A stretch of DNA of 64,000 bases from an uncultured Acidobacteriota bacterium (lineage in GTDB: Bacteria; Acidobacteriota; Thermoanaerobaculia; UBA5066; Gp7-AA6), in contig CAWFHK010000001.1 of assembly GCA_963815655.1 (NCBI GenBank), positions 3,930,664 through 3,994,663 of the forward strand. Direction: 5' to 3'. Of this stretch, positions 6,869-62,293 are shown piece by piece; position 1 is the stretch's first letter, and the number at the start of each line of letters is the position of its first letter. Position numbers and translations under genes: made by a program. Under the pieces are notes generated by a model. It saw only the letters and a list, made by a program, of their open reading frames with translations. It did not search any database and was not told the origin of the DNA.

Positions 6869-8020
6869 ATGGAACCTCGGTCTTCCGGATTCGCCTGGCT
6901 CGTGCTGCTCGCGGGTGCCGCGGGCTGCGCCTCCGTTGGACCCCTCGACGTCAAACCGGAGTCCCTGGGCGCCTTCGAATGCGTGGACCGCGGGGCCGTC
7001 GCGTCGCCTCCGCCGCGCTCGGTCCTCGCCATCGGGCGCGCGCGGCGCGAGGAGAAGACGATCGTCCAGCGCGAGGGGAGGCCGCTCCTGACCCTCCGGC
7101 CGTGCGGGGACAGTAAGGTCCCGGTCTCGAAGACTCCGGCGAAGCCGACGGTGGCGAAGGGCAACCCTCTCCTCGGCGCGATCGACCGGCCGGTCTCCGA
7201 CTTCTTCAAAGAGGGGGGGACGGGCGAGGTGGTCCGGAAGAGCCTCCGCCCCTTCCGGAAGGTCTATTACATCCCGCCGGGACCGGACGAGGGCAAGCAC
7301 GAGGCGCCGGCGGATCCGCCCGCCTGCAACGGCATCTTCTACTACGGCGCCTGCTACTACTACGGGCCGGCGAGCTACGCGAGCGCGGCCGACGGTGGCG
7401 GCCTGACCGTGACCATCAAGCGCCCGGCCTTCCACGGCGAGGGGCACAGCCTGGACGAGATCTCCGTGCAGGGGGGAGAGGACAACGGCAACATCATCGA
7501 GCTCGGCTGGAATGTCTCGACCTCGCAATATCCGGACGCCGACCCGCACCTCTTCGTCTATCACTGGATCAACTGGGTCGGCACCTGCTACGACACCTGC
7601 GGCTGGCACCAGTACAGCCCGACCTATTTCCCGGGAATGAACCTGGCAGCGCTCGTCGGCCACGACGTCTACAACGGGTTCGTTCACTTCGGAGGAAACT
7701 GGTGGGCCTGGTTCGACAACCAGTGGCTCGGCTATTTCGCCGACTCGGAATGGAGCGGCAACTACACGAAGAGCGCGATGATCCAGTGGTTCGGCGAGGT
7801 CTCGACGAACAACGGGACCCCGCCGGAGGTCGACATGGGCAATGGGTTCTTCCCGACGAACCTCGCCGCGGCGAGGATGGCGACGCTCTGCGACGTGGAC
7901 GCGGCGGCGTGGGTCTGCTGGTACCGCGATCTCCAGTCGCTCGGTCCGAACTACCCGCCCTATTACGACATCCGCCGCATTGGCTTCGGCGAGACCCGCT
8001 ACGGCGGCCCCGGGCACTGA
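6869..8020 (+). CDS. lipoprotein with neprosin-like (DUF239) domain
   Basis: ATG with GAAGGGAGG RBS and a lipoprotein signal (LVLLAGAAGC). The C-terminal region matches the neprosin pattern IE.GW.V......P.LF.YW......GCY...C.GF.Q (IELGWNVSTSQYPDADPHLFVYHWINWVGTCYDTCGWHQY). Confidence 0.5.
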   Translation: MEPRSSGFAWLVLLAGAAGCASVGPLDVKPESLGAFECVDRGAVASPPPRSVLAIGRARREEKTIVQREGRPLLTLRPCGDSKVPVSKTPAKPTVAKGNPLLGAIDRPVSDFFKEGGTGEVVRKSLRPFRKVYYIPPGPDEGKHEAPADPPACNGIFYYGACYYYGPASYASAADGGGLTVTIKRPAFHGEGHSLDEISVQGGEDNGNIIELGWNVSTSQYPDADPHLFVYHWINWVGTCYDTCGWHQYSPTYFPGMNLAALVGHDVYNGFVHFGGNWWAWFDNQWLGYFADSEWSGNYTKSAMIQWFGEVSTNNGTPPEVDMGNGFFPTNLAAARMATLCDVDAAAWVCWYRDLQSLGPNYPPYYDIRRIGFGETRYGGPGH

Positions 8021-8024
8021 GCGG

Positions 8025-9002
8025 GTGGAGGAGACCGCGCCGCCGGGCCTGACGCTTTCCCGGATCGAAGAGGCGCGGGCGTTCCTGGGCGGCCGTGTCC
8101 GGCGGACGCCTCTGGAGGAATCGCCGGCCCTCTCCGCGCTCCTCGGCGTGCCGGCCTGGCTGAAGCTCGAATCGCTCCAGGTCACCGGCTCCTTCAAGAT
8201 CCGCGGCGCCGCCTTCCGCCTCTCCCTCCTGACGGAGGAGGAGAAGCGGGCGGGGGTCGCCACGTGCTCGGCCGGCAACCACGGGAAAGCCGTGGCGTAC
8301 GCCTCGAGAGCGCTCGGGCTCGTGCCGACGATCACCGTGCCCGCGAGCGTGGACGAGTCGAAGTACCGCGCGATCATGGAGCTCGGGGCCGACGTCATCC
8401 GCTCGGCGTTCCCCGGCTACGACGACACCGAGGAGTGGGCGATGCGGGAGGCGGAACGGTCCGGAAAGGTCTGGATCTCCGCCTTCGAAGACGTGGCGAT
8501 CATGGCGGGCAACGGCGGGACGCTGGCCCTCGAGATCCTCGAGGACCTGCCCGACGCCCGCGGTTTCGTTCTGCCGGTCGGAGGCGGGGGGATGTCCGCC
8601 GGCCTCGCCTTCACCGTCAAGGAGAAGCTCTCCGGCGCGACGATCGTCGGCTGCCAGCACGAGGCCTCGCCGGCGCTGGCGCTCTCGATCGAGCGCGGTC
8701 GCGCCGTCACGCGGCTGCCGGCCGTGGAGACCGCCGCCGGCGGGATCGAGGGAGGCATCGGGAGAAAGACTTTCGAGATCCTGCGGCCGCGCATCGACCG
8801 GGTCGCCCTCGTCTCGGAGCGGGAGATCTTCGAAGGAGTGCGCTGGACGCTCGCGGAGCACCAGCACCTGATCGAGCCCTCCGCGGCGGCCGCCGTCGCC
8901 GCCTGCCTGACCGGGAAGGCGGGTGAGTTCGACGGGCCCGTCGTGGTCGTGATCTCGGGCCGGAACGTCAGCCTGGAGACTCTTCGAAAGATACTTTGCT
9001 AG
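8025..9002 (+). CDS. PLP-dependent threonine/serine dehydratase family (fold-type II PLP enzyme)
   Basis: Contains the PLP-lysine motif SFKIRGA, the glycine loop GGGGM and the downstream SAGNHG. There is no in-frame ATG; GTG at 8025, just after the previous stop, is assumed. Start uncertain. Confidence 0.7.
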   Translation: MEETAPPGLTLSRIEEARAFLGGRVRRTPLEESPALSALLGVPAWLKLESLQVTGSFKIRGAAFRLSLLTEEEKRAGVATCSAGNHGKAVAYASRALGLVPTITVPASVDESKYRAIMELGADVIRSAFPGYDDTEEWAMREAERSGKVWISAFEDVAIMAGNGGTLALEILEDLPDARGFVLPVGGGGMSAGLAFTVKEKLSGATIVGCQHEASPALALSIERGRAVTRLPAVETAAGGIEGGIGRKTFEILRPRIDRVALVSEREIFEGVRWTLAEHQHLIEPSAAAAVAACLTGKAGEFDGPVVVVISGRNVSLETLRKILC

Positions 9003-9400
9003 GTCCTGTCATCCCGAGCCTGGTTCCTGTCATCCCGAGCGAAGCGAGGGATCTGCTCCCGTAATTCTCAGGCTGCGGAGCAGATCCCTCGTCGCGGAGC
9101 CAGTCCCGATCGTCGATGTCGCCTAGTCCACCGTAACGAAAGCAGACTCCTCGCGGAGCCTGTCCCGAGCGGACACGGCTCATCGAAGCGACTGGAGTAG
9201 ATCCCTCGCTGCGCTCGGGATGACAGGAGGGGGCGAGGGGCTCGGGATGACAGGAGGGGGCGAGGGGCTCGGGATGACAGGAGGGGGCGAGGGGCTCGGG
9301 ATGACAGGAAGGGCGAGGGGCTCGGGATGACAGGAGGGGGCGAGGGGCTCGGAATGACATGCGAAGCGGAGGGGCTCCTCGGGATAACAGGCCATCGATT
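9003..9400. repeat. Hairpin-forming dispersed repeat locus 1, including a 27-bp tandem array (9214-9391, ~6.5 copies of CTCGGGATGACAGGAGGGGGCGAGGGG)
   Basis: Imperfect palindromes TGTCATCCCGAGCGAAGCGAGGGATCTGCTCC ... GGAGCAGATCCCTCG. The same motif family recurs at 46.3 kb and 53.2 kb. It generates the spurious ORFs with SCHPEPLAP / VIPSPSPPP repeats. Confidence 0.8.
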
Positions 9401-10131
9401 CAGGCTCCGGCGTTTCCCGAGGCCGTCTTGAAATAGAGGCACTCCGCGCGGACGGGACAGACTTCGCAGCGAGGGTGGTTTGTCTTGCAGAGTTCCTGTC
9501 CATGCCGGCGCAGGAGCCGGTGTGCCTCGATGAGAGCGACGCAGTCCCGCGGGATCTGTCCCGCGGCGGCCTCCTGCGCCGAGCGATAGGACTTCGCGTA
9601 GCTCTTCTCCTGCGCGCCGAACCCCAGACGCAGGAGGGCACGCAGGCCGTTCGAGTCGAGGGCGAGAACGGGGAGGGCGCCCGCGAAGAGGAGGATCTTC
9701 TCGGCCCCGGGGTCGCCGATCGAGGGGAACTTCTTCAAGGCCTTGATCGCGTCTTTGGGAGGAAGGCGCGGAACGCCGGAGAGGTCGCCGCCGAATTCCT
9801 CGAGCGCGATCGCCGCGATCTCCCGGAGCTTCTCGACGGTGCCGCCGGGCAGGATCCCCCGCCCGCCGATTCCGTGGAGCGCCGCCGGCGGCGCCGCGAG
9901 GATCCGCTCGGGCTTCAACCCCGTCAGCTCTCTCAGGAGGCGGAACGCCTCCGTCCTCCGCGCGTCGCTGGCGAGGTAGGCGACGTTCTCGAAGAGGATC
10001 TGTTCCAGAGGGTCCGTCACCCCGGGCGGCGCGGGCTTTCCGTAGAAGGCCTCGAGGTCTCGCAGGATGCCGCCGAGCGACGTCGTGGCGCGCCTCTTCG
10101 CTGCGGTCGGCCTCTTCTTGCGGAGCGCCAC
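9400..10131 (-). CDS. HhH-GPD base-excision DNA glycosylase (endonuclease III-like)
   Basis: Helix-hairpin-helix GPD region (HGIGGRG). C-terminal 4Fe-4S cluster loop (CKTNHPRCEVCPVRAEC). Confidence 0.7.
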   Translation of the reverse strand: MALRKKRPTAAKRRATTSLGGILRDLEAFYGKPAPPGVTDPLEQILFENVAYLASDARRTEAFRLLRELTGLKPERILAAPPAALHGIGGRGILPGGTVEKLREIAAIALEEFGGDLSGVPRLPPKDAIKALKKFPSIGDPGAEKILLFAGALPVLALDSNGLRALLRLGFGAQEKSYAKSYRSAQEAAAGQIPRDCVALIEAHRLLRRHGQELCKTNHPRCEVCPVRAECLYFKTASGNAGA

Positions 10132-17317: not shown

Positions 17318-17475
17318 AGAATCGGGTGATCGGATGATCGGGTGAACGGCGCAGTGGCTTAGGTTTTGCCCCCGTCAATCATCCGATCACCCGATCGCAG
17401 ATCACCCGATCGCAGATCACCCGATCGCAGGTCACCCGATCGCAGATCACCCGATTCCACTTCACCCGATTCCCC
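17318..17475. repeat. ATCACCCGATCGCAG 15-bp tandem array (~6 copies, 17386-17475) preceded by inverted GGGTGATCGG copies (17321-17346)
   Basis: Seen directly. It sits between the convergent kinase gene and the secreted-protein gene and can fold into a long stem. Confidence 0.8.
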
Positions 17476-20884: not shown

Positions 20885-22069
20885 ATGAAGAGAAGAGGCG
20901 GTACTGGAGCGCGGATCGGTGTCTTCGCCGGTGCCCTGGCCTCAGCCGTCCTGGTCCTGGGCGCAACCCGGGGCCCCGCACCGGTGGACGTCTTGACGAT
21001 CGGGACGGTGAACGTCTCGTCCGGCACGGGCCAGGTCAAGGTCCCGTTCTCGATCCAGGACAACACCGGCACCCTGATCGGCCGCGACAAGGGCGCGGGC
21101 CTGCGGATCACGATCTTCGCGGCGCAGGTGGTCTACGGGCCCAACGCCTGCATCGACACGCCGTCTTCGGCGAGCGCGCGCATCGACCTGACCGGCGGCA
21201 TCCTCGCCAGCCAGAGCGCGGACCTTGACAGCCGCGTCAAGGTGGCCAACACGTCGCAGACCTGGTTCTACTCCTCGGCGGAGTCGAACGGGCTCATCCC
21301 CTTCACGGCGGCGGCCAGCCCCGGAGACCTGATGGGACAACTGGTCTTCGACCTGACCGGCTGCCCGGCCGGCCCGATCAGCCTGACCGTCACCGCGTCC
21401 GGCGCGGCGCAAGCCCTGCTCAGCTCCGACAGTGGCATGTCCGAGACTTCCGGCAGCGGTCTCACGGTCGTCAACGGCGCGATCAACATCACTCTCCCCA
21501 CGAGCACGCCGACGAACACTCCGACCAATACGCCGACGAATACGCCCACGAGCACGCCGACGAGGACGCCGACCGGCACGCCGACCAACACGCCGACACT
21601 CACGCAGACGCCGACGAACACACCGACGTTTACGCCGACGAACACGCCCACGATCACGCCGACGGTTACCTTCACGAACACGCCGACGCTCACGCCGACC
21701 GGCACGCAGTCGCCGACCTTCACGCCGACGCTCACGCCGACGAACACGCCGACGAACACGCCGACGGCCACGGTGACGAACACGCCGACGAACACGCCGA
21801 CCGGCACTCCGCCGCCGACGATCACGCCGACGTTCACGGCGACGAACACGCCCACGATCACGGCGACGTTCACGGTGACCAACACCCCGACGAACACGCC
21901 GGTCGCGACGGTGACGCCGACGACGACCCCGATTCCGCCCCCGACCACGACGCCGGTTCCGGGAGCGATTCCGGCAAACATCCCGACGCTGGACGGACGG
22001 TCGCTCGCTTTCCTCGCCGCGCTCCTCGCGGCTGCCGGCCTGCTGCTGTCGAAGCGCCTTTCCGGGTAG
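20885..22069 (+). CDS. IPTL-CTERM sorting-signal protein with extended Thr-Pro (TPTNTP) repeat linker
   Basis: Signal peptide ([27 protein letters not shown]). About 150 aa of TPTNTP-type repeats, encoded by an 18-bp DNA tandem at 21490-21960. The C-terminus is [30 protein letters not shown], i.e. an IPTL motif, a TM helix and a basic tail. Confidence 0.7.
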
Positions 22070-27913: not shown

Positions 27914-27925
27914 GGCTCGCTTCGC

Positions 27926-27975
27926 TCGCCCGGGACTCGGGACTCGAGACTCGGGACTCGGAATTCGGGATTCGA
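27926..27975. repeat. GGGACTCG octamer tandem array (~5 copies) just upstream of the efflux operon start
   Basis: CCCGGGACTCGGGACTCGAGACTCGGGACTCGGAATTCGGGATTCG. The same octamer array recurs at 40.25-40.37 kb. Confidence 0.8.
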
Positions 27976-39383: not shown

Positions 39384-40295
39384 ATGGAAGCCTTGCGGAT
39401 CGGATCGGACGAACACGCCCGTCTCTTCTGCGGGACGTTCCTGGAGACTCACCGCCCCTTCCGGGCCCGGGACATCGTCTGGCCCGAGCTGGACGAGGAG
39501 AACCTGGCCAGGTTGAAGGGCCTCCCCGTCTGGGACGAGGCGGCGAGGACGGAAGCCGCCACCGCAGTCAAGGTGCAGACCCTCGGGGAAGCCGAGACCG
39601 ACCCGCTCCTGAAGGAAGCCATCGCCCTGCAGGGCTACGAGGAGGGGCGCCACGCGGAGATCATCTCCCTCCTGACGAAGACCTACGGGATCGCCACCGC
39701 TCCCTTCGGAGAGCCGGAGAGGCCGAAGAACCCGACGTGGACCTTCCTGCGCACCGGCTACGGCGAGTGCCTCGATTCCTTCTTCGCCTTCGGCCTCTTC
39801 GACATCGGGCGCAGGAGCGAGTTCTTCCACGCGGACCTGATCGCGCTCTTCGACCAGATCATGCAGGAGGAGGCGAGGCACATCCTCTTCATCGTGAACT
39901 GGGCGGCGTACCTGCGCGCCCGCAGGCCCCTTCCGCTCAAGCCGGTGTTCGACGCGCGGCGGGCCTGGAACATCGCCGCGCAGGCCTTCGACCGCGTGAG
40001 CGGCGCGATGCGAATGGCCGGCGGCGGAAACGGCGGCGGCGGAGAAAACGGTGAAGAGAAGGCGAAGGGGACGCAGAGGGGGTTCACGCTGAAGAGCCAC
40101 TCGGCCTTCGGCGATTTCAAGCTGCGCTCGTTCCTGGAGCTCTGCCTGGCCGAGAACGTGCGGCGCCTCTCGCCCTACGACCCGCGCCTGTTGAGACCCA
40201 CGCTGGTACCGGGGACCGTGCGGCTCCTGGTGAAGCTGCTCCCCCGGGCGAAGCCGGGACGCGGGACTCGGGACGCGAGACTCGAACCGAAGTGA
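39384..40295 (+). CDS. ferritin-like di-iron carboxylate protein
   Basis: ATG with GGAGAGGAGG RBS. Two ExxH motifs (EEGRH, EEARH) in helical context. Gly-rich C-terminal tail. Confidence 0.55.
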   Translation: MEALRIGSDEHARLFCGTFLETHRPFRARDIVWPELDEENLARLKGLPVWDEAARTEAATAVKVQTLGEAETDPLLKEAIALQGYEEGRHAEIISLLTKTYGIATAPFGEPERPKNPTWTFLRTGYGECLDSFFAFGLFDIGRRSEFFHADLIALFDQIMQEEARHILFIVNWAAYLRARRPLPLKPVFDARRAWNIAAQAFDRVSGAMRMAGGGNGGGGENGEEKAKGTQRGFTLKSHSAFGDFKLRSFLELCLAENVRRLSPYDPRLLRPTLVPGTVRLLVKLLPRAKPGRGTRDARLEPK

Positions 40296-40365
40296 TGGTC
40301 CTTCGCTCCAAGAACCCAACCAGGTTTCCCCCTCCGAACCCCGAGTCCCGAGTCCCGAGTCCCGA
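40250..40365. repeat. inverted GGGACTCG / CGAGTCCC octamer arrays spanning the ferritin-like stop and abutting the next start codon
   Basis: CGGGACGCGGGACTCGGGACGCGAGACTCG (40250-40280) and CCGAGTCCCGAGTCCCGAGTCCCGAC (40340-40365) are reverse complements of each other. The second ends 3 nt before the ATG at 40369. Confidence 0.75.
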
Positions 40366-46323: not shown

Positions 46324-46329
46324 CTATCC

Positions 46330-46535
46330 CCCCTGTCATTCCGAGGAGCCCCTCCGCTCGTTCTGTCACTCCGAGCGAAGCGAGGAGTCTGCCCTGGTCG
46401 TTTTTGACCGGCTCGGATCAAGATCGGGACAGGCTCCGCGACGAGGAATCTACCTCCGTTGGGCCGCGCCGGAGCAGATCCCTCGCTGCGCTCGGGATGA
46501 CAAAGCGGGGCGGGAGGCTCGGAATGACAGGAACG
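46330..46535. repeat. Hairpin-forming dispersed repeat locus 2
   Basis: TGTCATTCCGAGGAGCC...TGTCACTCCGAGCGAAGCGAGGAGTCTGCC...GGAGCAGATCCCTCGCTGCGCTCGGGATGACA. Same family as 9.0-9.4 kb and 53.2 kb. Lies between hpnA and hpnH. Confidence 0.8.
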
Positions 46536-46544
46536 GTCGGAGAC

Positions 46545-47546: not shown

Positions 47547-49548
47547 CGGCTCGATTCTCCTTCGCTCGTCCTCGTGTCGGCCGTGGCTTCCAGGGCCTTC
47601 CGATCGGCGGCCTCGAGTCCGGGGCCGGAAGACCCGGCCTCCCGTCCATAGACCGCGAGGGCCCAGAGCGGGAAGTACGTCGCGTAGAGATGGTAGCGCA
47701 GGTAGAAGACCCGCGGGAACCCCGTCCCGGTCCAGTATTCGTCCTTCCAGGAGCCGTCGTACTGCTGGTTTCCCAGCAGGTAGTCGAGGCCGCGGCGAAC
47801 GCTGTTGGAAGTCCAGTCGCCCAACGCGAAGAGTCCAAGCAACGCCCATGCCGTCTGGGAGGGGGTGCTCGGCCCGGTGCCTTTGCGCCCCGGCTCGTCG
47901 TAGGAGCGCGGGAGCTCTCCCCATCCGCCGTCCTCGTTCTGGTGGCGGCGCAGCCAGCTCCCCCCCGCTGATACCGTTCCTGGGAGAGGTCCTCGCCGGC
48001 GCTCGCGAGTCCCCTCAGGGCGAGCCACGTCCCGTAGATGAAGTTGCACCCCCACCGCCCATACCAGGTTCCTTCGGTGTCCTGCCTGCGGTTCAGATAC
48101 GCGACGGCGCGCCGGACCGCCTTGACGCCGCGCCCGACGCCGATCCGGTCGAGCGCCTCGAGCGTGCGCCCGGTGATGTCCTCGCAGCTCGGGTCGATCA
48201 TGGCGTTGTGGTCCGCGAACGGGATGAACGTCAGCACCTCGTTGTCGCAGTCGCGGTCGAAGGCGGGCCAGCCGCCGTCGCCGTTCTGCATCGCGAGCTG
48301 CCAGGTCACGCCGCGCTCGATCGCCCCCTGCCGGCGCCGCTCGTCGCGCTCGTCGGGAAAACGCACGGCGGCCAGAGACGTCAGCACTTCCGCCGTGTCG
48401 TCGGTATCGGGATAGAACTCGTTCTCGTACTCGAAGTACCAGCCGCCGGGGGGCGTCTTCGGGATCCGCCGCTGCCAGTCCCCGGGCACGCGGACTTCGC
48501 GGTCGAGCAGCCAGCCCGCCGCGCGCAGCAGGCACGGATCGTCTTCCGGGACGCCCGCCTCCCGCAGCGCGACCACCGCGAGCGCCGTGTCCCAGACCGG
48601 GGGGAAGCAGGGCTGCAGGCGAATCGTCTCTTCCTCCTCGATCTCCAGCTTCTGCAGCTCTTCGACCTGGCTCTTCACCGTCGGGTGATCGGCCGCGTAG
48701 CCGCGGCAGCGCAGCGCGAGGATCGTGTTGACGATCGGAGGGAAGATCGCTCCGAGCCCGTCGCTCCTCTCGAGACGCTCGAGGACCCACGCCTCGGCCC
48801 GTGCCAGCGCCCGCCTGCGCAGGGGAGTCCAGCGCCGGGACTCCAGCTCGTGGAGGAACCGGTCCACCCCGCCGAAGAAGGCTCCCCAGAACCGCGCGCG
48901 CAGGCTCCGCGCCCGCCGCTTCGGCTGCGCCGCGCCCTCCGGCGTCCGGAGCTCGGTGAGAGACGCGCTCTCCGGGACGGGACAGCTCGGGCGATATGCC
49001 GAGATGATCGAGAGGGGCACCACGATCGCGCGGGACCAGGAGGACATCCGATAGATCGAGAACGGCATCCAGTCCGGCAGCAGGACGAGCTCCGCCGGGA
49101 CGGTCGGGCATCTCTCCCAATCGTATTGTCCGAAGATCGAGAGATAAATCTTCGTGAAGGAGTTGCACGCGTCCAGCCCGCCATGCTCGCGGATGACGCG
49201 CCGCGCCTTCGCCATGTGCGGGGCTTCGGGGTCGTCGCCGACGAGCTTCAAGGCGAAGTAGGCCTTCGTCGAGGCGCTCACCTCCGCCGGGCCTCCCGGG
49301 TAGACCGCCCAGCCCCCCGACGGGAGCTGCTGGCGCCGCAGGTACTCGGCCGCCTTCCGGATCCGGTCCTCCCCGGTGCGCCCGAGGAAATGCATCGTCA
49401 GCATGTACTCGGACTCGAGGATCGTGTCCCCCTCGAGCTCGCCGCACCAGTGGCCGTCCTCGCGCTGGATGGAGAGGAGGTACCGGCGGGCCGCCGCCGC
49501 GGCGTCGTCCACCCCGAGTGCGGGTTCCACGTCTTTCTCGACCGACAT
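47543..49548 (-). CDS. shc: squalene-hopene cyclase, reading frame interrupted at a G7/C7 homopolymer (47960-47966)
   Basis: The N-terminal ~530 aa (frame A) carry the QW motifs and DxDDTA (DTDDTAEV). The C-terminal ~140 aa (GGWGE...TGTGFPRVFYLRYHLY...) lie in a second frame. One extra G in the run would restore ...SQERYQRGGSWLRRHQNEDGGWGE.... Confidence 0.8.
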
Positions 49549-52700: not shown

Positions 52701-53179
52701 CGCGGCAGGCGATGGGGGAGCGGCTGTGCCTGGCCGACTTCGTCGCTCCGCCCTCGGGCGCCGGGAAGCCGGATTCGATCGCTCTCCTCATCACGACCGC
52801 CGGCGAGGGGGTCCGCGAGCGCGCCGAGGACCTGAAGGCCCGCGGCGAGTACCTCCTCTGCCACTGCCTGCAGGCGCTCGCCGTCGAGACCGCCGAGGCG
52901 GCCGCCGAGTGGGTCCACCGCGTCATCCGCGAGGGCTGGGGCTTCCCCGATCCTCCCGGCACGACGATGACCGACCGCTTCCAGGCCCGCTACCGCGGCA
53001 AACGCTACAGCCCCGGCTACCCCGCCTGCCCCGACCTCGCCGACCAGGCGACGATCTTCGGGCTCCTGCCCGGCGGCAAGATCGGCGTGGAGCTGACCGA
53101 GGGCTTCATGATGGACCCCGAGGCCTCCGTCTCCGCCCTCGTCGTCCACCACCCCCACGCTCGCTACTACGCCGTCTGA
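49715..53179 (+). CDS. metH: cobalamin-dependent methionine synthase
   Basis: Hcy-binding, pterin-binding, B12 cap and binding (DVHDIGKN), and AdoMet-reactivation domains all recognisable. The start is assigned to GTG at 49715 with a weak RBS and is uncertain. Confidence 0.85.
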
Positions 53180-53204
53180 GCATTCCCTCGTTGCGCGGAG
53201 AGAG

Positions 53205-53440
53205 GCCCTTCTCATTCTGAGGAGCGATTCCATTCCCCTGTCATTCTGAGGAGCCTCCTCGGCTTCGCATGTTCATTCCGAGCCCCTCGCCCTTCGCTGT
53301 CATCCCGAGCGGAGCGAGGGATCTGCTCTGCCCGATTCGAGTCGCCGCATCCGAGCTCGGGACAGGCTCCGCGAGGAATCTGCCCTCGTTACCGTGAACC
53401 CGCGACATCAATCATCGGGACAAGCTCCGACGAAGAACCG
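53205..53440. repeat. Hairpin-forming dispersed repeat locus 3
   Basis: TGTCATTCTGAGGAGCC...TGTCATCCCGAGCGGAGCGAGGGATCTGCTC...GGGACAGGCTCCGCGAGGAATCTGCC. Same family as loci 1 and 2. Downstream of metH. Confidence 0.8.
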
Positions 53441-53467
53441 GCCCCGCCTGCCGAGTCGCCGGCAGCC

Positions 53468-54889
53468 TCAGTGGAGGTGGGCGGTCGGGTCGCCGGGGGG
53501 CAGGGCTTCAAAAGCGGGGTGCTCCGGATTTCCGCGGGTCAGGATCATCGCGTAGAGGAAGGGGCCGAAGCTCGTCCCCTTCCGGCCGTTGACGGCCACG
53601 ATCGGCGTTCCGTCGGAGTCGAACAGGGCGGCCGTGGTGATGTCGTCCTCGAGCTTCAAGCTCGTCGCCGCGGAATCCATGCAGGCGGAGAGAGCCGGGC
53701 GGGGCAGGAAGGGCGCCGCGATCTGGAACATCTTCTCGCGGTTGAGGGTCTCCTGCGCGGCGAAGAGCGCCGCGGCAAACTGCGGCTCCTTGCCGGTCGG
53801 TTCCATGCAGATCCTCGCCTGCGCCGCGGCGCACCGCACGTCGTCCCCTTTTCTCTGCCCCACGAAGGGGTTGCAGCGCCCGTCGAGCGGGAACTGCCGC
53901 GCGTCCACGCTGAAGCTGCCGGGCGGCGAGCTTTCGCGCAGCGTCCGCAGGGTCTCCTGGAGCGCGGCGCAGTGCTCGCAGAGGATGTCGGTGAACTCGG
54001 TGATCCGCACGGTCGCCAGGTCCGATCCGGCCAGGGCGCGCGGCGGCGGCAGCCGCTGCGGCGGCGCCGCGCGGTAGATGGCCAGCGAGTCGGCGAGGGT
54101 CTGCTTGAGGGGAGGCTCGAGCGAGGCGATCATGTCCGCGAGGACCTTGTCGGTCTGGGCGTTGCCCGTGCCGGCGGCCGGCGGCGAGGCGCCCCCGGAC
54201 CGGGCCGCCTCCGACACGGCCTTCCTGCCCGCCTCGCCGCTCGATTTCGGCGTGCGCAGCCCCGGATAGAGGAGGAGGACGAAGGCTCCGAGGGAGACTC
54301 CGGCCGCGAGCAGGAACCCGCGCCGAGCCTGCGGGAATCCCGCGGGGCGCCACTGCAGGAGAGTGATGAACCCGTAGGCCGCCACGATCACGTACGTCAC
54401 AGCGCACCCGAGGCAGAAGGCGCCGGCGATCGCGCTTGCGGCGAGCATCAGCGCCACGGCCAGGATCCCGGCGAGGCCGACGAACCGGGTCGCGGCCGGG
54501 AGCGGCGCCAGCGTCTTCCCTTCCGCGCGGCGCACCAGCGCGGCGAGCGGCAGGAGAAACGCCGCCGCGCTCCAGGCGAGACCCCAGCCTGCGATCGGAA
54601 CGCCGGTCAGCCTGTGGACCGTCGAGGCGAGCGCCCCGGTCCAGACTGCCTCGCAATCGAGGTTGCCGCCGAAGCCGCAGAAAGAGCTGCCTCCCGATCG
54701 CACGAGCACGAGTTCCGCCCACAGAAAAAGCGACCAGAGCCCCGACAGCCCGCCGAGCACGCACAGCTTCGCCAGGCTGCGCGGTGTCACGACCGCCGCG
54801 GAGTCCGCCGGCACGACCGGGCGCTCCTTCGGCTCCGACCCTTCCTCTCTGCGCCGATCTTTCCGGGCCATCTCCCGGGATTCTGACAT
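53468..54889 (-). CDS. VKOR (vitamin K epoxide reductase)-like membrane domain fused to periplasmic DsbA/thioredoxin-like domain
   Basis: 5 TM helices with a loop CxxC (CGFGGNLDC) and a TM CxxC (CLGC). C-terminal thioredoxin-fold CxxC (ILCEHC). Confidence 0.7.
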   Translation of the reverse strand: MSESREMARKDRRREEGSEPKERPVVPADSAAVVTPRSLAKLCVLGGLSGLWSLFLWAELVLVRSGGSSFCGFGGNLDCEAVWTGALASTVHRLTGVPIAGWGLAWSAAAFLLPLAALVRRAEGKTLAPLPAATRFVGLAGILAVALMLAASAIAGAFCLGCAVTYVIVAAYGFITLLQWRPAGFPQARRGFLLAAGVSLGAFVLLLYPGLRTPKSSGEAGRKAVSEAARSGGASPPAAGTGNAQTDKVLADMIASLEPPLKQTLADSLAIYRAAPPQRLPPPRALAGSDLATVRITEFTDILCEHCAALQETLRTLRESSPPGSFSVDARQFPLDGRCNPFVGQRKGDDVRCAAAQARICMEPTGKEPQFAAALFAAQETLNREKMFQIAAPFLPRPALSACMDSAATSLKLEDDITTAALFDSDGTPIVAVNGRKGTSFGPFLYAMILTRGNPEHPAFEALPPGDPTAHLH

Positions 54890-57482: not shown

Positions 57483-58183
57483 GCCCGCGCCGCCTCATCG
57501 ATCTCTCGTATCCGATCGAGCCCGGGATGACGACCTACCCGGGACTCCCCGCTCCGGTGGTCTCGGAATTTCTCTCGCGCGAGGCCTCGCGCGGGAAGTA
57601 CGCGCCCGGAACGGCCTTCTCGATCGCGCGGATCGAGATGGTGGCGAACACCGGGACATACGTGGACGCGCCGTTCCACCGGTTCGCCGAAGGCCTCGAC
57701 GTGGGAAGCCTGCCGCTCGAGCGCCTGGCGGACCTGGACGGCGTCGTCGTCGATCTGCTCCCTCTCCCGGCGGGAGAGGGCGGGGGTGAGGGGCGGCGCC
57801 GCGCGTTCGACGCCGGGCTCCTGGCGGGACGGGACCTGGAAGGCAAGGCGGTCCTGCTGCGCTCCGGTTGGGACGTTCACTGGCGGACGCCGGCGTACTC
57901 CCGGGGCCACCCGTACGTCACCCGCCGGGCCGCCGAGGCCCTCGCGGCGGCGCGGCCGGCCCTGGTCGGGATCGACTCGCTGAACATCGACGACACGGAG
58001 GACGGGACGCGGCCGGCGCACACTCTCCTCCTCGAGGCCGGCATCCCGATCGCCGAGCATCTCTGCAACCTCGCGGACCTGCCGCTCGAAGGATTCCGTT
58101 TTCACTGCGCTCCGGCGCCGTTTCACGGCGTCGGCAGCTTCCCCGTCCGCGCCTATGCGGTGGTCGAATCGGGCGCCCGATGA
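57479..58183 (+). CDS. cyclase-family protein (kynurenine formamidase-like)
   Basis: Metal-binding HxGTHxDAPxH-like motif (NTGTYVDAPFH). TTG start overlapping the previous stop (TTGA); an ATG further in is also possible. Confidence 0.65.
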   Translation: MSPRRLIDLSYPIEPGMTTYPGLPAPVVSEFLSREASRGKYAPGTAFSIARIEMVANTGTYVDAPFHRFAEGLDVGSLPLERLADLDGVVVDLLPLPAGEGGGEGRRRAFDAGLLAGRDLEGKAVLLRSGWDVHWRTPAYSRGHPYVTRRAAEALAAARPALVGIDSLNIDDTEDGTRPAHTLLLEAGIPIAEHLCNLADLPLEGFRFHCAPAPFHGVGSFPVRAYAVVESGAR

Positions 58184-60610: not shown

Positions 60611-62293
60611 TCATTGCTGCGCCGCCCGCCGTCCCCAGGAGAGAAACGCGGCGGCGGAGAGCGCGGCGAGGAGCACCCCGTACGCCGCGGCGGCGCCGGT
60701 GTCCTGCATCCGCAGCGAGGAGAGGATCTCGATGGAAATCGGCCGCGTGTCGAAGGTGTAGAGGACGATCGAGACGACGAAATCGCCGAGAGACGTCAGG
60801 AACGCGAGAGACGCCCCGGCGAGAAGGGCCGGCGCGAGGAGCGGAACCGTGATCCGGGCCAGGCGCCTCCAGGGCGGGGCGCCGAGGGAGGCGCCTGCCT
60901 CATCCAGGGACCGGTCGAGCTGCCGCAGGCCGGCGAAGGCCGCCCGCCCGGTCAGCGGCAGGTTCCTCACGAGATAGCCGAGAGGCAGGATCGCCGCCGT
61001 GCCGACGAGCACGAAGCGCCCCGCCCAGGGAGCGTGCCGGGAGAAGGTCGCCGCCAGGGCCACGGCGAAGACGGTCCCCGGAAGCGCCCACGGCACCGAG
61101 ACGAGCGACTCGAGCGCTCCGCGCCAGCGCGTCCGCCTGGCGACGGCGAGCCACGCCGCGAAAAACCCGAGGAGAAGCGCGCCCGCGGTCGAGACGACGG
61201 CCATCCAGAGGGAGTTCACGATCGGCCGCAGGCGTTCCGTCTGCGAGAAGACCGAGGCCCAGTTGGAGAAGTTCAGGACGGGCGGCCACGGCTCGATCGT
61301 CCACGTCCCGGGGGGCACGAACGAGACGAGGAGAAGCGTGGCGTGCGGAAGCAGGAGGAAGAGGGCCAGCAGCCACGCCAGCACGGCCACGAGCGCCCCG
61401 CGCCGCAGCCGGCGCCGCGAAGGCGGCGTGCCGCGGATCGCACCGGCCACCTCCCGGCGTTTCTCCGCCCGCTGCAGGAAAAAGAGTCCGAGCAGGGCGA
61501 CAGCCGCGAGCGTCGTCGTCTCGACCATCGCCATCTCGTTGTCGCCGTTCAATCGCGAGAAAACGATCTGCGTCGTCATGACGCGGAACGTCCCGCCGAA
61601 GAGATACGGCGCCGAGAAGGACGAGAGCGACGTCATGAAGGTCAGGAGCGCTCCGCCGGCGAGCGCGGGCGCCAGAAGCGGCAGCGTCACCCGGGCCAGG
61701 ATGCGCCCGGGCCCCGCTCCCAGGGCCGCGGCCGCCTCCAGGTACGCGGCATCCAGACGAGCCAGCCCGGCCCGCGTGAAGAGATAGAAATAGACGTACA
61801 TCGAATAGGCGTGGACGAGCAGGACGGCTCCGGGGCCGGAGAGACGCCAGGGCGGCTCTCTGGATCCCGTCACGGCCTGGACGGCCCGCGCGAAAAACCC
61901 GCTCTCTCCGTAGAGGAAGAGAAACGCGACGACGCCGACGAGCGGAGGCAGGACGACCGGCAGCGCGATCAGCGTCCCGAGCGCGCGCCGCCCCGGGAAG
62001 TCCGCCCGCTCGAAGAGGAACGCCAGCGGAATGCCGATCGCCGCCGAGAGCGCGACCGTCGCGAGCGAGATCCAGAGAGTCGCCCAGAGCGCCTGCCACT
62101 CGTCGGGCCGGCGAAAGAACTCGGCGAAGTAGCGCAGGCTCCACCCCGGCGCCGCGAGCGCCTCCCGAAACGTCAGCAGGAGCGGATAGCAGACGAGCCA
62201 CGCCAGGAGCAGCGTCAGGATCGCGGCCGGTATTCTTCCCTCTCCCGGCGGGAGAGGGGCAGGGTGAGGGGCGCCCCTGCGCCGTCCGATCAA
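60611..62293 (-). CDS. ABC transporter permease, duplicated-domain iron(III)/thiamine type (FbpB/ThiP-like)
   Basis: 12 TM helices with two BPD-transporter EAA-like loops. Start tentatively TTG overlapping the ATPase stop (TTGA). Confidence 0.7.
   Translation of the reverse strand: MIGRRRGAPHPAPLPPGEGRIPAAILTLLLAWLVCYPLLLTFREALAAPGWSLRYFAEFFRRPDEWQALWATLWISLATVALSAAIGIPLAFLFERADFPGRRALGTLIALPVVLPPLVGVVAFLFLYGESGFFARAVQAVTGSREPPWRLSGPGAVLLVHAYSMYVYFYLFTRAGLARLDAAYLEAAAALGAGPGRILARVTLPLLAPALAGGALLTFMTSLSSFSAPYLFGGTFRVMTTQIVFSRLNGDNEMAMVETTTLAAVALLGLFFLQRAEKRREVAGAIRGTPPSRRRLRRGALVAVLAWLLALFLLLPHATLLLVSFVPPGTWTIEPWPPVLNFSNWASVFSQTERLRPIVNSLWMAVVSTAGALLLGFFAAWLAVARRTRWRGALESLVSVPWALPGTVFAVALAATFSRHAPWAGRFVLVGTAAILPLGYLVRNLPLTGRAAFAGLRQLDRSLDEAGASLGAPPWRRLARITVPLLAPALLAGASLAFLTSLGDFVVSIVLYTFDTRPISIEILSSLRMQDTGAAAAYGVLLAALSAAAFLSWGRRAAQQ

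Follow-up and report, generated by a model that had tools for sequence, protein, structure and literature searches.

We characterized three intergenic clusters of a short hairpin repeat in a 64-kb stretch of DNA from an uncultured Acidobacteriota bacterium of the class Thermoanaerobaculia (contig CAWFHK010000001.1, positions 3,930,664–3,994,663; the whole stretch is referred to here as the window). The clusters are probably a tagged DNA hairpin repeat of the CGTC/TGTC-tagged repetitive extragenic palindrome (REP) class, to which the Neisseria NTS/dRS3 and SRM hairpins also belong, and by analogy with these the target of a small Ssn nuclease encoded elsewhere in the genome. The repeat is thus ordinary in kind (REP-like): we place it as the member of the CGTC-tagged/Ssn-related class with internal G.A mismatches and a GNA loop, and not as a new kind of element. 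Its hairpin is preserved by covariation, it carries the tag of the class, it is widely distributed and turns over at an orthologous site, and in other genomes it is tightly associated with Ssn-like genes.

Three intergenic clusters share one repeat unit

The repeat analysis covered the whole window and loci fetched from other genomes. An earlier note on this DNA had described a dispersed family of near-identical imperfect palindromes. The 28-nt pattern given there matches five window sites at ≤2 mismatches (9028+, 9198−, 46364+, 46475− and 53298+), while 100 dinucleotide shuffles lead one to expect 0. A covariance model trained exclusively on 117 foreign copies recovers exactly these five sites (E = 3e-12 to 7e-11, 47–52 bits), with no further site at E<0.1 in its scan of the window. 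The family is therefore real. The 14-nt head of the unit, CTGTCATCCCGAGC, occurs 14 times in the three loci and twice elsewhere in the window (≤2 mismatches). In total, the window holds five full 32-nt units (consensus CTGTCATCCCGAGCGAAGCGAGGGATCTGCTC), ~14 head-only units and four or five tail modules, all of them confined to three intergenic spacers:

Locus 1, 9003–9399: between convergent open reading frames (ORFs) ending at 9002 (+) and 9400 (−)
Locus 2, 46324–46544: between the hpnH stop (46545) and the hpnA start (46323), both genes on the − strand
Locus 3, 53180–53467: between convergent metH (+, ending at 53179) and an ORF ending at 53468 (−)

These ORF boundaries bear out the earlier placement of all three loci in intergenic DNA at the 3' ends of genes, with locus 2 between hpnA and hpnH. 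The earlier count of ~6.5 tandem copies at locus 1 is also a fair one: Tandem Repeats Finder reports a 27-nt period in 5.5 copies (95% identity, 9213–9359), and degenerate copies run on to about 9390. The note's long stem-loops are found at loci 1 and 2 (folding z-scores of −5.0 and −6.3) but not at locus 3, which is a half-element only (z = +0.2). The spurious ORFs that it quoted do exist (8968–9360 and 9180–9641, both −), and a Pfam search with four such ORFs returned nothing.

The unit is a tagged hairpin preserved by compensatory change

The core of the unit reads TGTC-AT-YCY-GA-GC-GNA-GC-GA-RGR-AT-C. It folds into a 5-bp stem (AT-YCY/RGR-AT), a tandem G.A/A.G mismatch, a 2-bp GC stem and a GNA triloop, leaving TGTC unpaired 5' of the stem and a C (then T) unpaired 3' of it. 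Covariation was tested on 117 and then 150 distinct copies, with 500 shuffles as the null. In these two sets, 98.9% and 99.5% of the cells were paired, and compensatory changes were found in four and then five of the seven pairs; the observed covariation score was matched by 0 of the 500 shuffles. The inner G-C pair has changed to A-T in six copies, and one copy in the window (46363) by itself carries two compensated pairs.

The same picture emerges from a scan of viral contigs and species-representative genomes with a 25-mer (GTCATYCYGAGCGNAGCGARGRATC) in which the Y and R stem positions were left free; its counts refer to the matches listed. Despite this freedom, the stem is fully Watson-Crick in 297 of 311 copies among the matches listed. 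The copies fall into four main complementary stem types and several rarer ones. The first two pairs, A-U and U-A, hold in 150/150 and 149/150 copies. The loop N, by comparison, is variable (C 110, A 107, G 52, T 42 in sampled copies), and loops of 4 nt, such as GAGA and GTAT, also occur.

The unpaired flanks are conserved as well. In core-anchored copies from loci that were not picked by the motif, the six letters of TGTCAT are each found in 60–64 of 65 copies, those of ATC in 59–64 and the following T in 44. Four of the five window units carry TGTCAT and the fifth (46363) TGTCAC, both of which fit HGTCWY; a minority of copies elsewhere has CGTC in place of the TGTC tag. At the other end, the window units finish in ATCTGC or ATCTAC, or, in the case of the compensated copy at 46363, in GTCTGC.

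The centre of the unit, GCGNAGC, is what we take to be the sequence of known, very stable DNA minihairpins. Hirao and colleagues reportedly observed this stability in d(GCGNAGC) oligonucleotides by biophysical means. The likeness is exact, with the unit centre being GCGNAGC and N free; the minihairpins differ in being oligonucleotides and not a genomic element, so that their relevance here is presumptive.

A search of the window against Rfam gave 0 hits above the gathering threshold and, at E up to 10, chance-level hits only, in locus 1. A hammerhead-like reading of the CUGA..GAA portion was rejected, because its U has a covarying partner and Rfam offers no match.

In other genomes, units adjoin genes for Ssn-type GIY-YIG nucleases

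In Neisseria, hairpins of the NTS type (CGTCATTCCCGCGMAVGCGGGAATCYRG) and related 'SRM' hairpins flank the gene of SsnA, a 94-amino-acid (aa), single-domain GIY-YIG protein (Chenal et al., Nat Commun 2025; PMC11893778). SsnA binds the hairpin as single-stranded DNA only, and on the tagged strand only, and cuts a few nt 5' of it; the three nt 5' of the palindrome are critical for cleavage, and the C just 3' for binding (PMC11893778).

We found the unit in a similar position in other genomes. The loci L001–L240 were fetched from viral contigs and species-representative genomes with the motif itself as bait. In two of the genome loci among them, L146 and L223, a small GIY-YIG ORF adjoins the units; the proteins are 93–98 aa long, with PF01541 as their sole domain. 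At L146 units lie on both sides, and the last codons of the ORF run into one of them. In the reverse test, these two proteins alone, with no use of the motif, were used to fetch 80 metagenome loci. The exact unit type was present at 25 of the 80. The 43.6 kb of sequence no more than 300 nt from the gene contained 55 units, and the 155 kb farther away contained 6, a 33-fold difference in density. A generic detector of GTC-WY-hairpin-C units, requiring 5 stem pairs (a version requiring 6 perfect pairs was too strict), placed some such unit within 300 nt of the gene in 72 of the 80 loci and on both sides in 52.

Flanking by units on both sides is seen at L146, L270, L282 and L289. The last of these has a GC content of 66% and carries the window's own ATCCC/GGGAT stem type on either side of the gene. 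Aligned over their full length with ≤1 gap, the proteins of L289 and L146 share 41% and 40% identity with a gonococcal GIY-YIG ORF of 94 aa; the 1.7 kb around this ORF (L332) contain 13 NTS copies. PLSDB lists the record in question (NZ_CP119140.1, 1881572–1883250), a complete N. gonorrhoeae chromosome, among its plasmids, and the ORF is missing from the PLSDB gene table for it.

Closer to the window, a Thermoanaerobaculia metagenome-assembled genome (MAG) encodes an Ssn-like protein, P0212, whose gene is flanked by related units. Beside it (DATKFO010000109.1; L326, 1179–3291), an IS110-family transposase gene (PF01548 + PF02371) lies between a head-only unit and the units flanking the Ssn-like gene. 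IS110-type elements are known to target REP and dRS3 hairpins, and the L326 arrangement recalls them.

The unit is widespread and mostly arranged in inverted dimers

Among the matches listed, the exact 25-mer is found in MAGs and genomes labelled as coming from well over a dozen bacterial phyla, a list that MAG binning errors could inflate, and in viral contigs. By record title, the genomes include Acidobacteriota (many, Thermoanaerobaculia among them), Chloroflexota, Nitrospirota, Gemmatimonadota, Planctomycetota, Verrucomicrobiota, Bacteroidota, Bacillota, several classes of Proteobacteria, Omnitrophota, Fibrobacter, the candidate phyla radiation (CPR) and one Nanoarchaeota MAG. L148, L163 and L183 are loci of Thermoanaerobaculia MAGs that carry the unit. 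The viral contigs, from IMG/VR, are predicted viruses, many with clusters of capsid-, portal- and terminase-like genes. The GC content of unit-bearing loci ranges from 29% to 70%, and the sequence of the unit is near-invariant across that range. When collections of plasmids and cultured phages were searched with the unit by BLAST, matches were weak or partial only, and the motif was not found in cultured phages. A full-text literature search for the motif strings returned nothing beyond unrelated primer matches. When the ORFs of the first 240 loci were clustered all against all, phage structural genes alone recurred, and no enzyme candidate did.

Adjacent copies form head-outward inverted dimers in 23 of 33 cases, with spacers of 11–90 nt that have complementary ends. 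Where the two arms of a dimer differ, the change preserves the hairpin of its own arm and not the arm-to-arm pairing (L025, L197 and L200). No target-site duplication was visible at 22 dimers. Tandem full units were seen at many unrelated loci, as were head-only units 5' of a full one.

Some copies lie inside genes. In a Fibrobacter MAG (L213, 7195–7219), a unit is read in frame within a lipoprotein-like signal peptide (MKNSFPSVILSVAKNLAMLSIAAVMFVAC), while in three related phage contigs (L011, L035 and L077) units occupy a conserved site on the antisense strand of a long portal-like ORF. Other hairpin flavours within the same GTCAT..ATC frame were observed in Mucilaginibacter (L170, ~7265–7350), in the Nanoarchaeota MAG (L191) and in many of L246–L325; examples are GTCATTGCGAGGAACGAAGCAATC, GTCATGCTGAAC..TTCAGCATC, GTCATTCCGAACTTGTTTCGGAATC and GTCATTTCGACCGAAGGGAGAAATC, and several flavours can share one locus.

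Clusters are built from three modules and turn over at an orthologous site

The clusters of the window are composed of (i) the full 32-nt unit, (ii) the head-only unit, in which the tag and 5' arm lead into a pyrimidine-rich spacer, for example CCCTCGCCCCCTC, and (iii) a tail module, 'B' (GCTCGGGACAGGCTCC-GCGAGGAATCTGC), that finishes in the 3' arm of a unit. Head-only units always lie 5' of a full unit, in the same orientation. The modules are as follows:

9006–9019 (+): head-only unit CTGTCATCCCGAGC, tag and 5' arm without the 3' arm
9027–9058 (+): full unit CTGTCATCCCGAGCGAAGCGAGGGATCTGCTC; 50.4 bits in the covariance model; hairpin fold
9078–9112 (−): variant tail module 'B' carrying ..GCGACGAGGGATCTGCTC, the 3' half of a unit; identified by inverted repeat and fold, with its 5' part paired to the tail of 9027–9058
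9142–9170 (−): tail module 'B' GCTCGGGACAGGCTCCGCGAGGAGTCTGC; 1 mismatch to the locus 3 copy; inverted repeat
9195–9226 (−): full unit, inverted partner of 9027–9058 at a distance of 128 nt; 51.2 bits
9213–9390 (−): head-only tandem array with a 27-nt period, head CTGTCATCCCGAGC plus spacer CCCTCGCCCCCTC; array heads at 9240, 9267, 9294, 9320, 9347 and 9377, head of the full unit at 9213
46333–46346 (+): head-only unit CTGTCATTCCGAGG, 5' half of a split GAGGAGC..GCGACGA-flavour unit, from alignment with the orthologous spacer
46363–46394 (+): full unit with a doubly compensated stem, ACTCC/GGAGT (vs ATCCC/GGGAT); 47.2 bits; within an insertion of ~85 nt relative to the orthologous L241 element
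46422–46455 (+): tail module 'B' ..GGGACAGGCTCC GCGACGAGGAATCTACC, which completes the split unit begun by the 46333 head as its 3' half
46472–46503 (−): full unit, conserved at the same place in the orthologous L241 spacer; 51.5 bits
46517–46530 (−): head-only unit, missing from the orthologous L241 spacer (29-nt insertion in the window)
53209–53283 (+): three head-only units in direct order, TTCTCATTCTGAGG, CTGTCATTCTGAGG and TTCATTCCGAGC, each followed by a pyrimidine-rich spacer
53297–53328 (+): full unit CTGTCATCCCGAGCGGAGCGAGGGATCTGCTC; 52.3 bits
53355–53383 (+): tail module 'B' GCTCGGGACAGGCTCCGCGAGGAATCTGC, with GGAAT as the complement of ATTCC in the 53271 head
53414–53445 (+): degenerate tail module ATCGGGACAAGCTCCGACGAAGAACCGGCC, read by eye

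The orthologous hpnH-hpnA spacers of related genomes reveal how such a cluster changes. The HpnH protein of the window is 92% identical to those of Thermoanaerobaculia MAGs, while an exact-match search with its HpnA returned no record. Four loci are informative: L241 (HpnH 92% identical) has a simple dimer in the spacer, L242 (92%) unrelated sequence, L244 (83%) a degenerate remnant of the element, and L243 (85%) a spacer of ~15 nt with no element. The 13 kb available for each of L243 and L244 contain no copy of the unit at all. That orthologous spacers are empty, simpler or degenerate indicates that the clusters have been gained and remodelled over time.

Alignment of the window with L241 reveals a shared element, to which the window adds two pieces. 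The first, 29 nt long, is a head-only unit with its insertion point ~8 nt 5' of the left unit; the second is a piece of ~85 nt, containing a whole unit, that replaces the 3-nt loop of the right-hand unit. From this alignment we infer that the 'B' modules and some of the heads are the two halves of split units. At loci 2 and 3 the halves have matching stems, ATTCC and GGAAT. The proposed pairing of heads with tails does not appear in energy-based folds.

The absence of the element from the ~15-nt spacer of L243 means that the operon does not need it. The regulatory role suggested in the earlier note is for the same reason not borne out.

Placement among known repeat classes

The closest likeness is to the NTS/SRM hairpins and their Ssn nucleases. 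Both share the 5' tag HGTCWY (TGTCAT here), A-T and T-A as the first pairs, and an unpaired C and then Y after the stem (RNCYNB in the SRM pattern). In both, the units are oriented and clustered, number tens to hundreds per genome, and flank a single-domain GIY-YIG gene of ~94–100 aa; the protein found with the present unit type is ~40% identical to the gonococcal NTS-embedded ORF. Extrapolated from the window (5 units per 64 kb), a genome of 4–6 Mb would carry roughly 300–500 units. They differ in that the palindrome is imperfect here (tandem G.A mismatch, 2-bp GC stem and GNA triloop) and in their hosts, which here are mainly Acidobacteriota, Chloroflexota, Nitrospirota, Gemmatimonadota, CPR and Bacillota, together with viral contigs, whereas SRM hairpins are found mainly in Pseudomonadati.

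A broader class was defined by Di Nocera in 2013: 'CGTC-tagged' REPs have a CGTC, TGTC or CCTC tag, stems of 8–9 bp starting with A-T pairs, and a short tail; they are mostly head-to-head dimers with structured spacers of 20–100 nt, include in-frame intragenic copies, and have no linked transposase (PMC3733652). Families CGTC-1 to CGTC-4 include Neisseria dRS3 and Rickettsia RPE-4 and RPE-6 (PMC3733652). The acidobacterial unit agrees in its CGTC/TGTC tag, in having A-T for its first two stem pairs, nine stem positions and a short tail, in the predominance of head-to-head dimers whose 20–100-nt spacers have complementary ends, and in the lack of a linked transposase. It also agrees in its in-frame intragenic copies, which give VIP..GI-type peptides there and VILSEAKNL or VIPSEARDL here. 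Its loop is shorter (3 nt, or 4 in variants, versus 4–5 nt), two of its nine stem positions are G.A, its tail is CTS and not CCA, and Acidobacteria are not among the five phyla reported for the class.

The resemblance to the REP/REPIN-RAYT systems and BIMEs of E. coli and Pseudomonas is more general. It extends to short extragenic palindromes with an unpaired 5' tag, to inverted doublets and mosaic clusters, and, by analogy, to single-stranded DNA hairpins that would be recognised by a small, dedicated nuclease-type protein whose gene they flank. There the tag is GTAG and the enzyme an HUH-Y1 transposase; here they are TGTC and, presumably, a GIY-YIG nuclease. REPINs are moreover lineage-specific in sequence, while the 25-mer is nearly the same across phyla. 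Neisseria intergenic mosaic elements (NIMEs) are likewise intergenic arrays of tagged inverted repeats alternating with other blocks, comparable with the head arrays and A/B mosaics of the window, but the sequences and sizes of the blocks differ. In the literature we found no described counterpart of the 27-nt head-only array.

The earlier assignment to a 'REP/MITE' type (MITE, miniature inverted-repeat transposable element) can thus be divided. Tagged palindromes, an intergenic location, mostly inverted dimers, and presence or absence at orthologous sites agree with the REP part; the MITE part is not supported, as no target-site duplication was seen and no transposase with such ends was found.

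Alternative explanations

The clusters could in principle be RNA-level elements: transcribed stem-loops at transcript ends, kept as 3'-end protectors, terminators or attenuators like classical REPs. GNA/GNRA loops and tandem G.A pairs are stable motifs of RNA too, all three loci lie at gene 3' ends, and convergent spacers outnumber divergent ones across the loci (47 vs 22, by crude gene calls). Loci 1 and 2 would also give very stable long RNA hairpins (z = −5.0 and −6.3). The units show no orientation bias relative to co-directional genes, however (74 sense, 79 antisense), and no T-run follows the hairpins as it would in an intrinsic terminator; the window units are followed by TGCTCC, TACTCC or TGCCCT. 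Stability leaves the conserved, unpaired TGTC and 3' C unexplained, and the element is missing from the orthologous operon spacer of L243. Finally, the units cluster around one nuclease gene, and the Neisseria SsnA does not act on RNA (PMC11893778). Retention of the units for an RNA-level function is therefore unlikely, although RNA effects may arise as a by-product of the units.

Two DNA-level alternatives invoke a transposase. In the first, the repeat is a REP/REPIN family copied by a RAYT (HUH-Y1) or class 3 TnpA-Y1 enzyme, as in Pseudomonas, E. coli and Solibacter. The inverted dimers do resemble REPINs, and in Acidobacteria hairpins built like the window unit (stem, tandem GA, 2 bp and GNNA loop) do flank Y1 enzymes, with ~600 copies in Solibacter (PMC6006769). 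Yet the tag is TGTC and not GTAG, and the gene adjoining the units encodes a GIY-YIG nuclease. A Pfam scan of 149 unit-flanking ORFs found no Y1_Tnp or other recurring transposase family at its 110-aa length cut-off, below which the ~95-aa Ssn genes fell. The class 3 hairpin (CnGAGCCGCGACCGTNAGGGAGCG) differs in sequence, and a class 3 TnpA-Y1 partner was rejected on that ground. We regard copying by a Y1 enzyme as very improbable. Still harder to credit is the second alternative, a classical MITE, that is, a deletion derivative of a DDE transposon with terminal inverted repeats that is moved in trans. Dimers with terminal inverted repeats of ≥25 nt around a variable centre have the expected outline. 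Against this, the 22 dimers show no target-site duplication; single units, head-only arrays and split units are common; no transposase gene or insertion sequence bounded by these ends was found; and the compensatory changes (L025, L197 and L200) maintain the hairpin within an arm and not the pairing between arms.

A candidate target of a single-strand DNA nuclease

The reading that we favour is that of a tagged DNA hairpin recognised by an Ssn nuclease. By analogy with Neisseria, the genome would carry an Ssn gene outside the window, whose product would cut this variant of the hairpin and so serve some function in the cell. The nuclease would bind the folded, tag-bearing strand (GTCAT..) only when it is single-stranded, a state that could arise in, for example, replication, repair or DNA uptake, and would nick it just 5' of TGTC, a few nt from the hairpin. 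It could thereby act on single-stranded DNA traffic or recombination; in Neisseria, the Ssn-NTS system restricts or modulates incoming single-stranded DNA in transformation (PMC11893778). Units would meanwhile build up in non-essential spacers, chiefly at gene 3' ends, as inverted dimers, split units and tandem head arrays.

Several observations weigh against this reading. The window contains no GIY-YIG ORF. The published SRM pattern, HGTCWYN(0-2)YYVSBRHN(0-5)WNVSBRGN(0-2)RNCYNB, matches 0 of the five units and has 0 hits in the window, while an NTS control matches; the failure is due to the internal G.A mismatches and not to the flanks. In Neisseria, SsnA activity was abolished when the sequence of the palindrome was changed and its structure kept (PMC11893778), which implies that each hairpin variant needs an enzyme specificity of its own. 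The remaining 55 of the 80 Ssn-like loci have other hairpin flavours within the same GTCAT..ATC frame. Minimum-free-energy folding of single units, as RNA or as DNA, is no better than that of shuffled sequence (z = −0.5 to +0.4); since nearest-neighbour energies do not single out the unit, it is the covariation that carries the hairpin. In addition, L001–L240 were chosen with the motif as bait, and the context statistics were built on crude gene calls, by which 92 of 370 copies were counted inside long ORFs.

A further proposal is that the Ssn gene and its hairpins form a self-propagating module, with a GIY-YIG single-strand nuclease in place of a transposase. New copies would arise beside or inside existing hairpins, and horizontal transfer, in part by phages, would have carried the 25-mer variant into most bacterial phyla. 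What suggests it are the 29-nt head insertion ~8 nt 5' of a unit and the ~85-nt unit-bearing insertion in a loop, the position of head-only units always 5' of a full unit in many genomes, and the near-invariance of the sequence from 29% to 70% GC. The position of the head-only insertion would fit the Ssn cut site, but that of the insertion into the loop would not. We put self-propagation forward as a tentative idea, and would sooner bet against it than for it.

Other repeats and features of the window

The window also contains intergenic heptamer tandem arrays, (GGGACTC)n and (GTCCAAG)n, at 27915–27974, at 40255–40284 and 40333–40365, and at 2917–2943. A unit-core remnant (GGCTCGCTTCGCTCGCC) precedes the (GGGACTC)n array, and (GTCCAAG)n forms an inverted pair around ~50 nt. 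Similar heptamer arrays adjoin units in L007, L037 and L053 and come after hpnH in L242. A second, unrelated dispersed palindrome, TCCCTCTCCCGGCGGGAGAGGG..GTGAGGGGCG, occurs at 57759–57804 and 62237–62282 (87% identical). There is a 15-nt tandem repeat, GATCACCCGATCGCA, in 5.7 copies at 17385–17470, and a 12-nt/102-nt repeat over ~420 nt at 21500–21923 that is probably coding. In the squalene-hopene cyclase gene, the reading frame switches from −2 to −1 at 47956–47965 (tblastn with the L242 protein), owing to a frameshift or else to an error in sequencing; in L241, too, the gene is split.

Implications

The elements of the window are dispensable for the neighbouring hopanoid and methionine-synthase genes. 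They nevertheless affect how such genomes are annotated: numerous 'hypothetical proteins' are artefacts of the repeat (containing, for instance, VIPSEARDL, SFRAQRGI or ..SLRSG*), and ORFs overlapping units should be masked. The reach of the Ssn-repeat system has probably been underestimated, because the published SRM pattern misses the very widespread variant with G.A mismatches and a GNA loop. This variant is also a new, well-defined candidate recognition site for Ssn-based single-strand DNA tools; by analogy with NTS, the single-stranded unit sequences CTGTCATCCCGAGCGNAGCGAGGGATCTGC and 5'-CCTTCGCTGTCATCCCGAGCGGAGCGAGGGATCTGCTCTG-3' are candidate Ssn targets. Above all, a repeat scattered through acidobacterial, chloroflexal, CPR and many other genomes now has a concrete candidate partner, an Ssn-type single-strand DNA nuclease.

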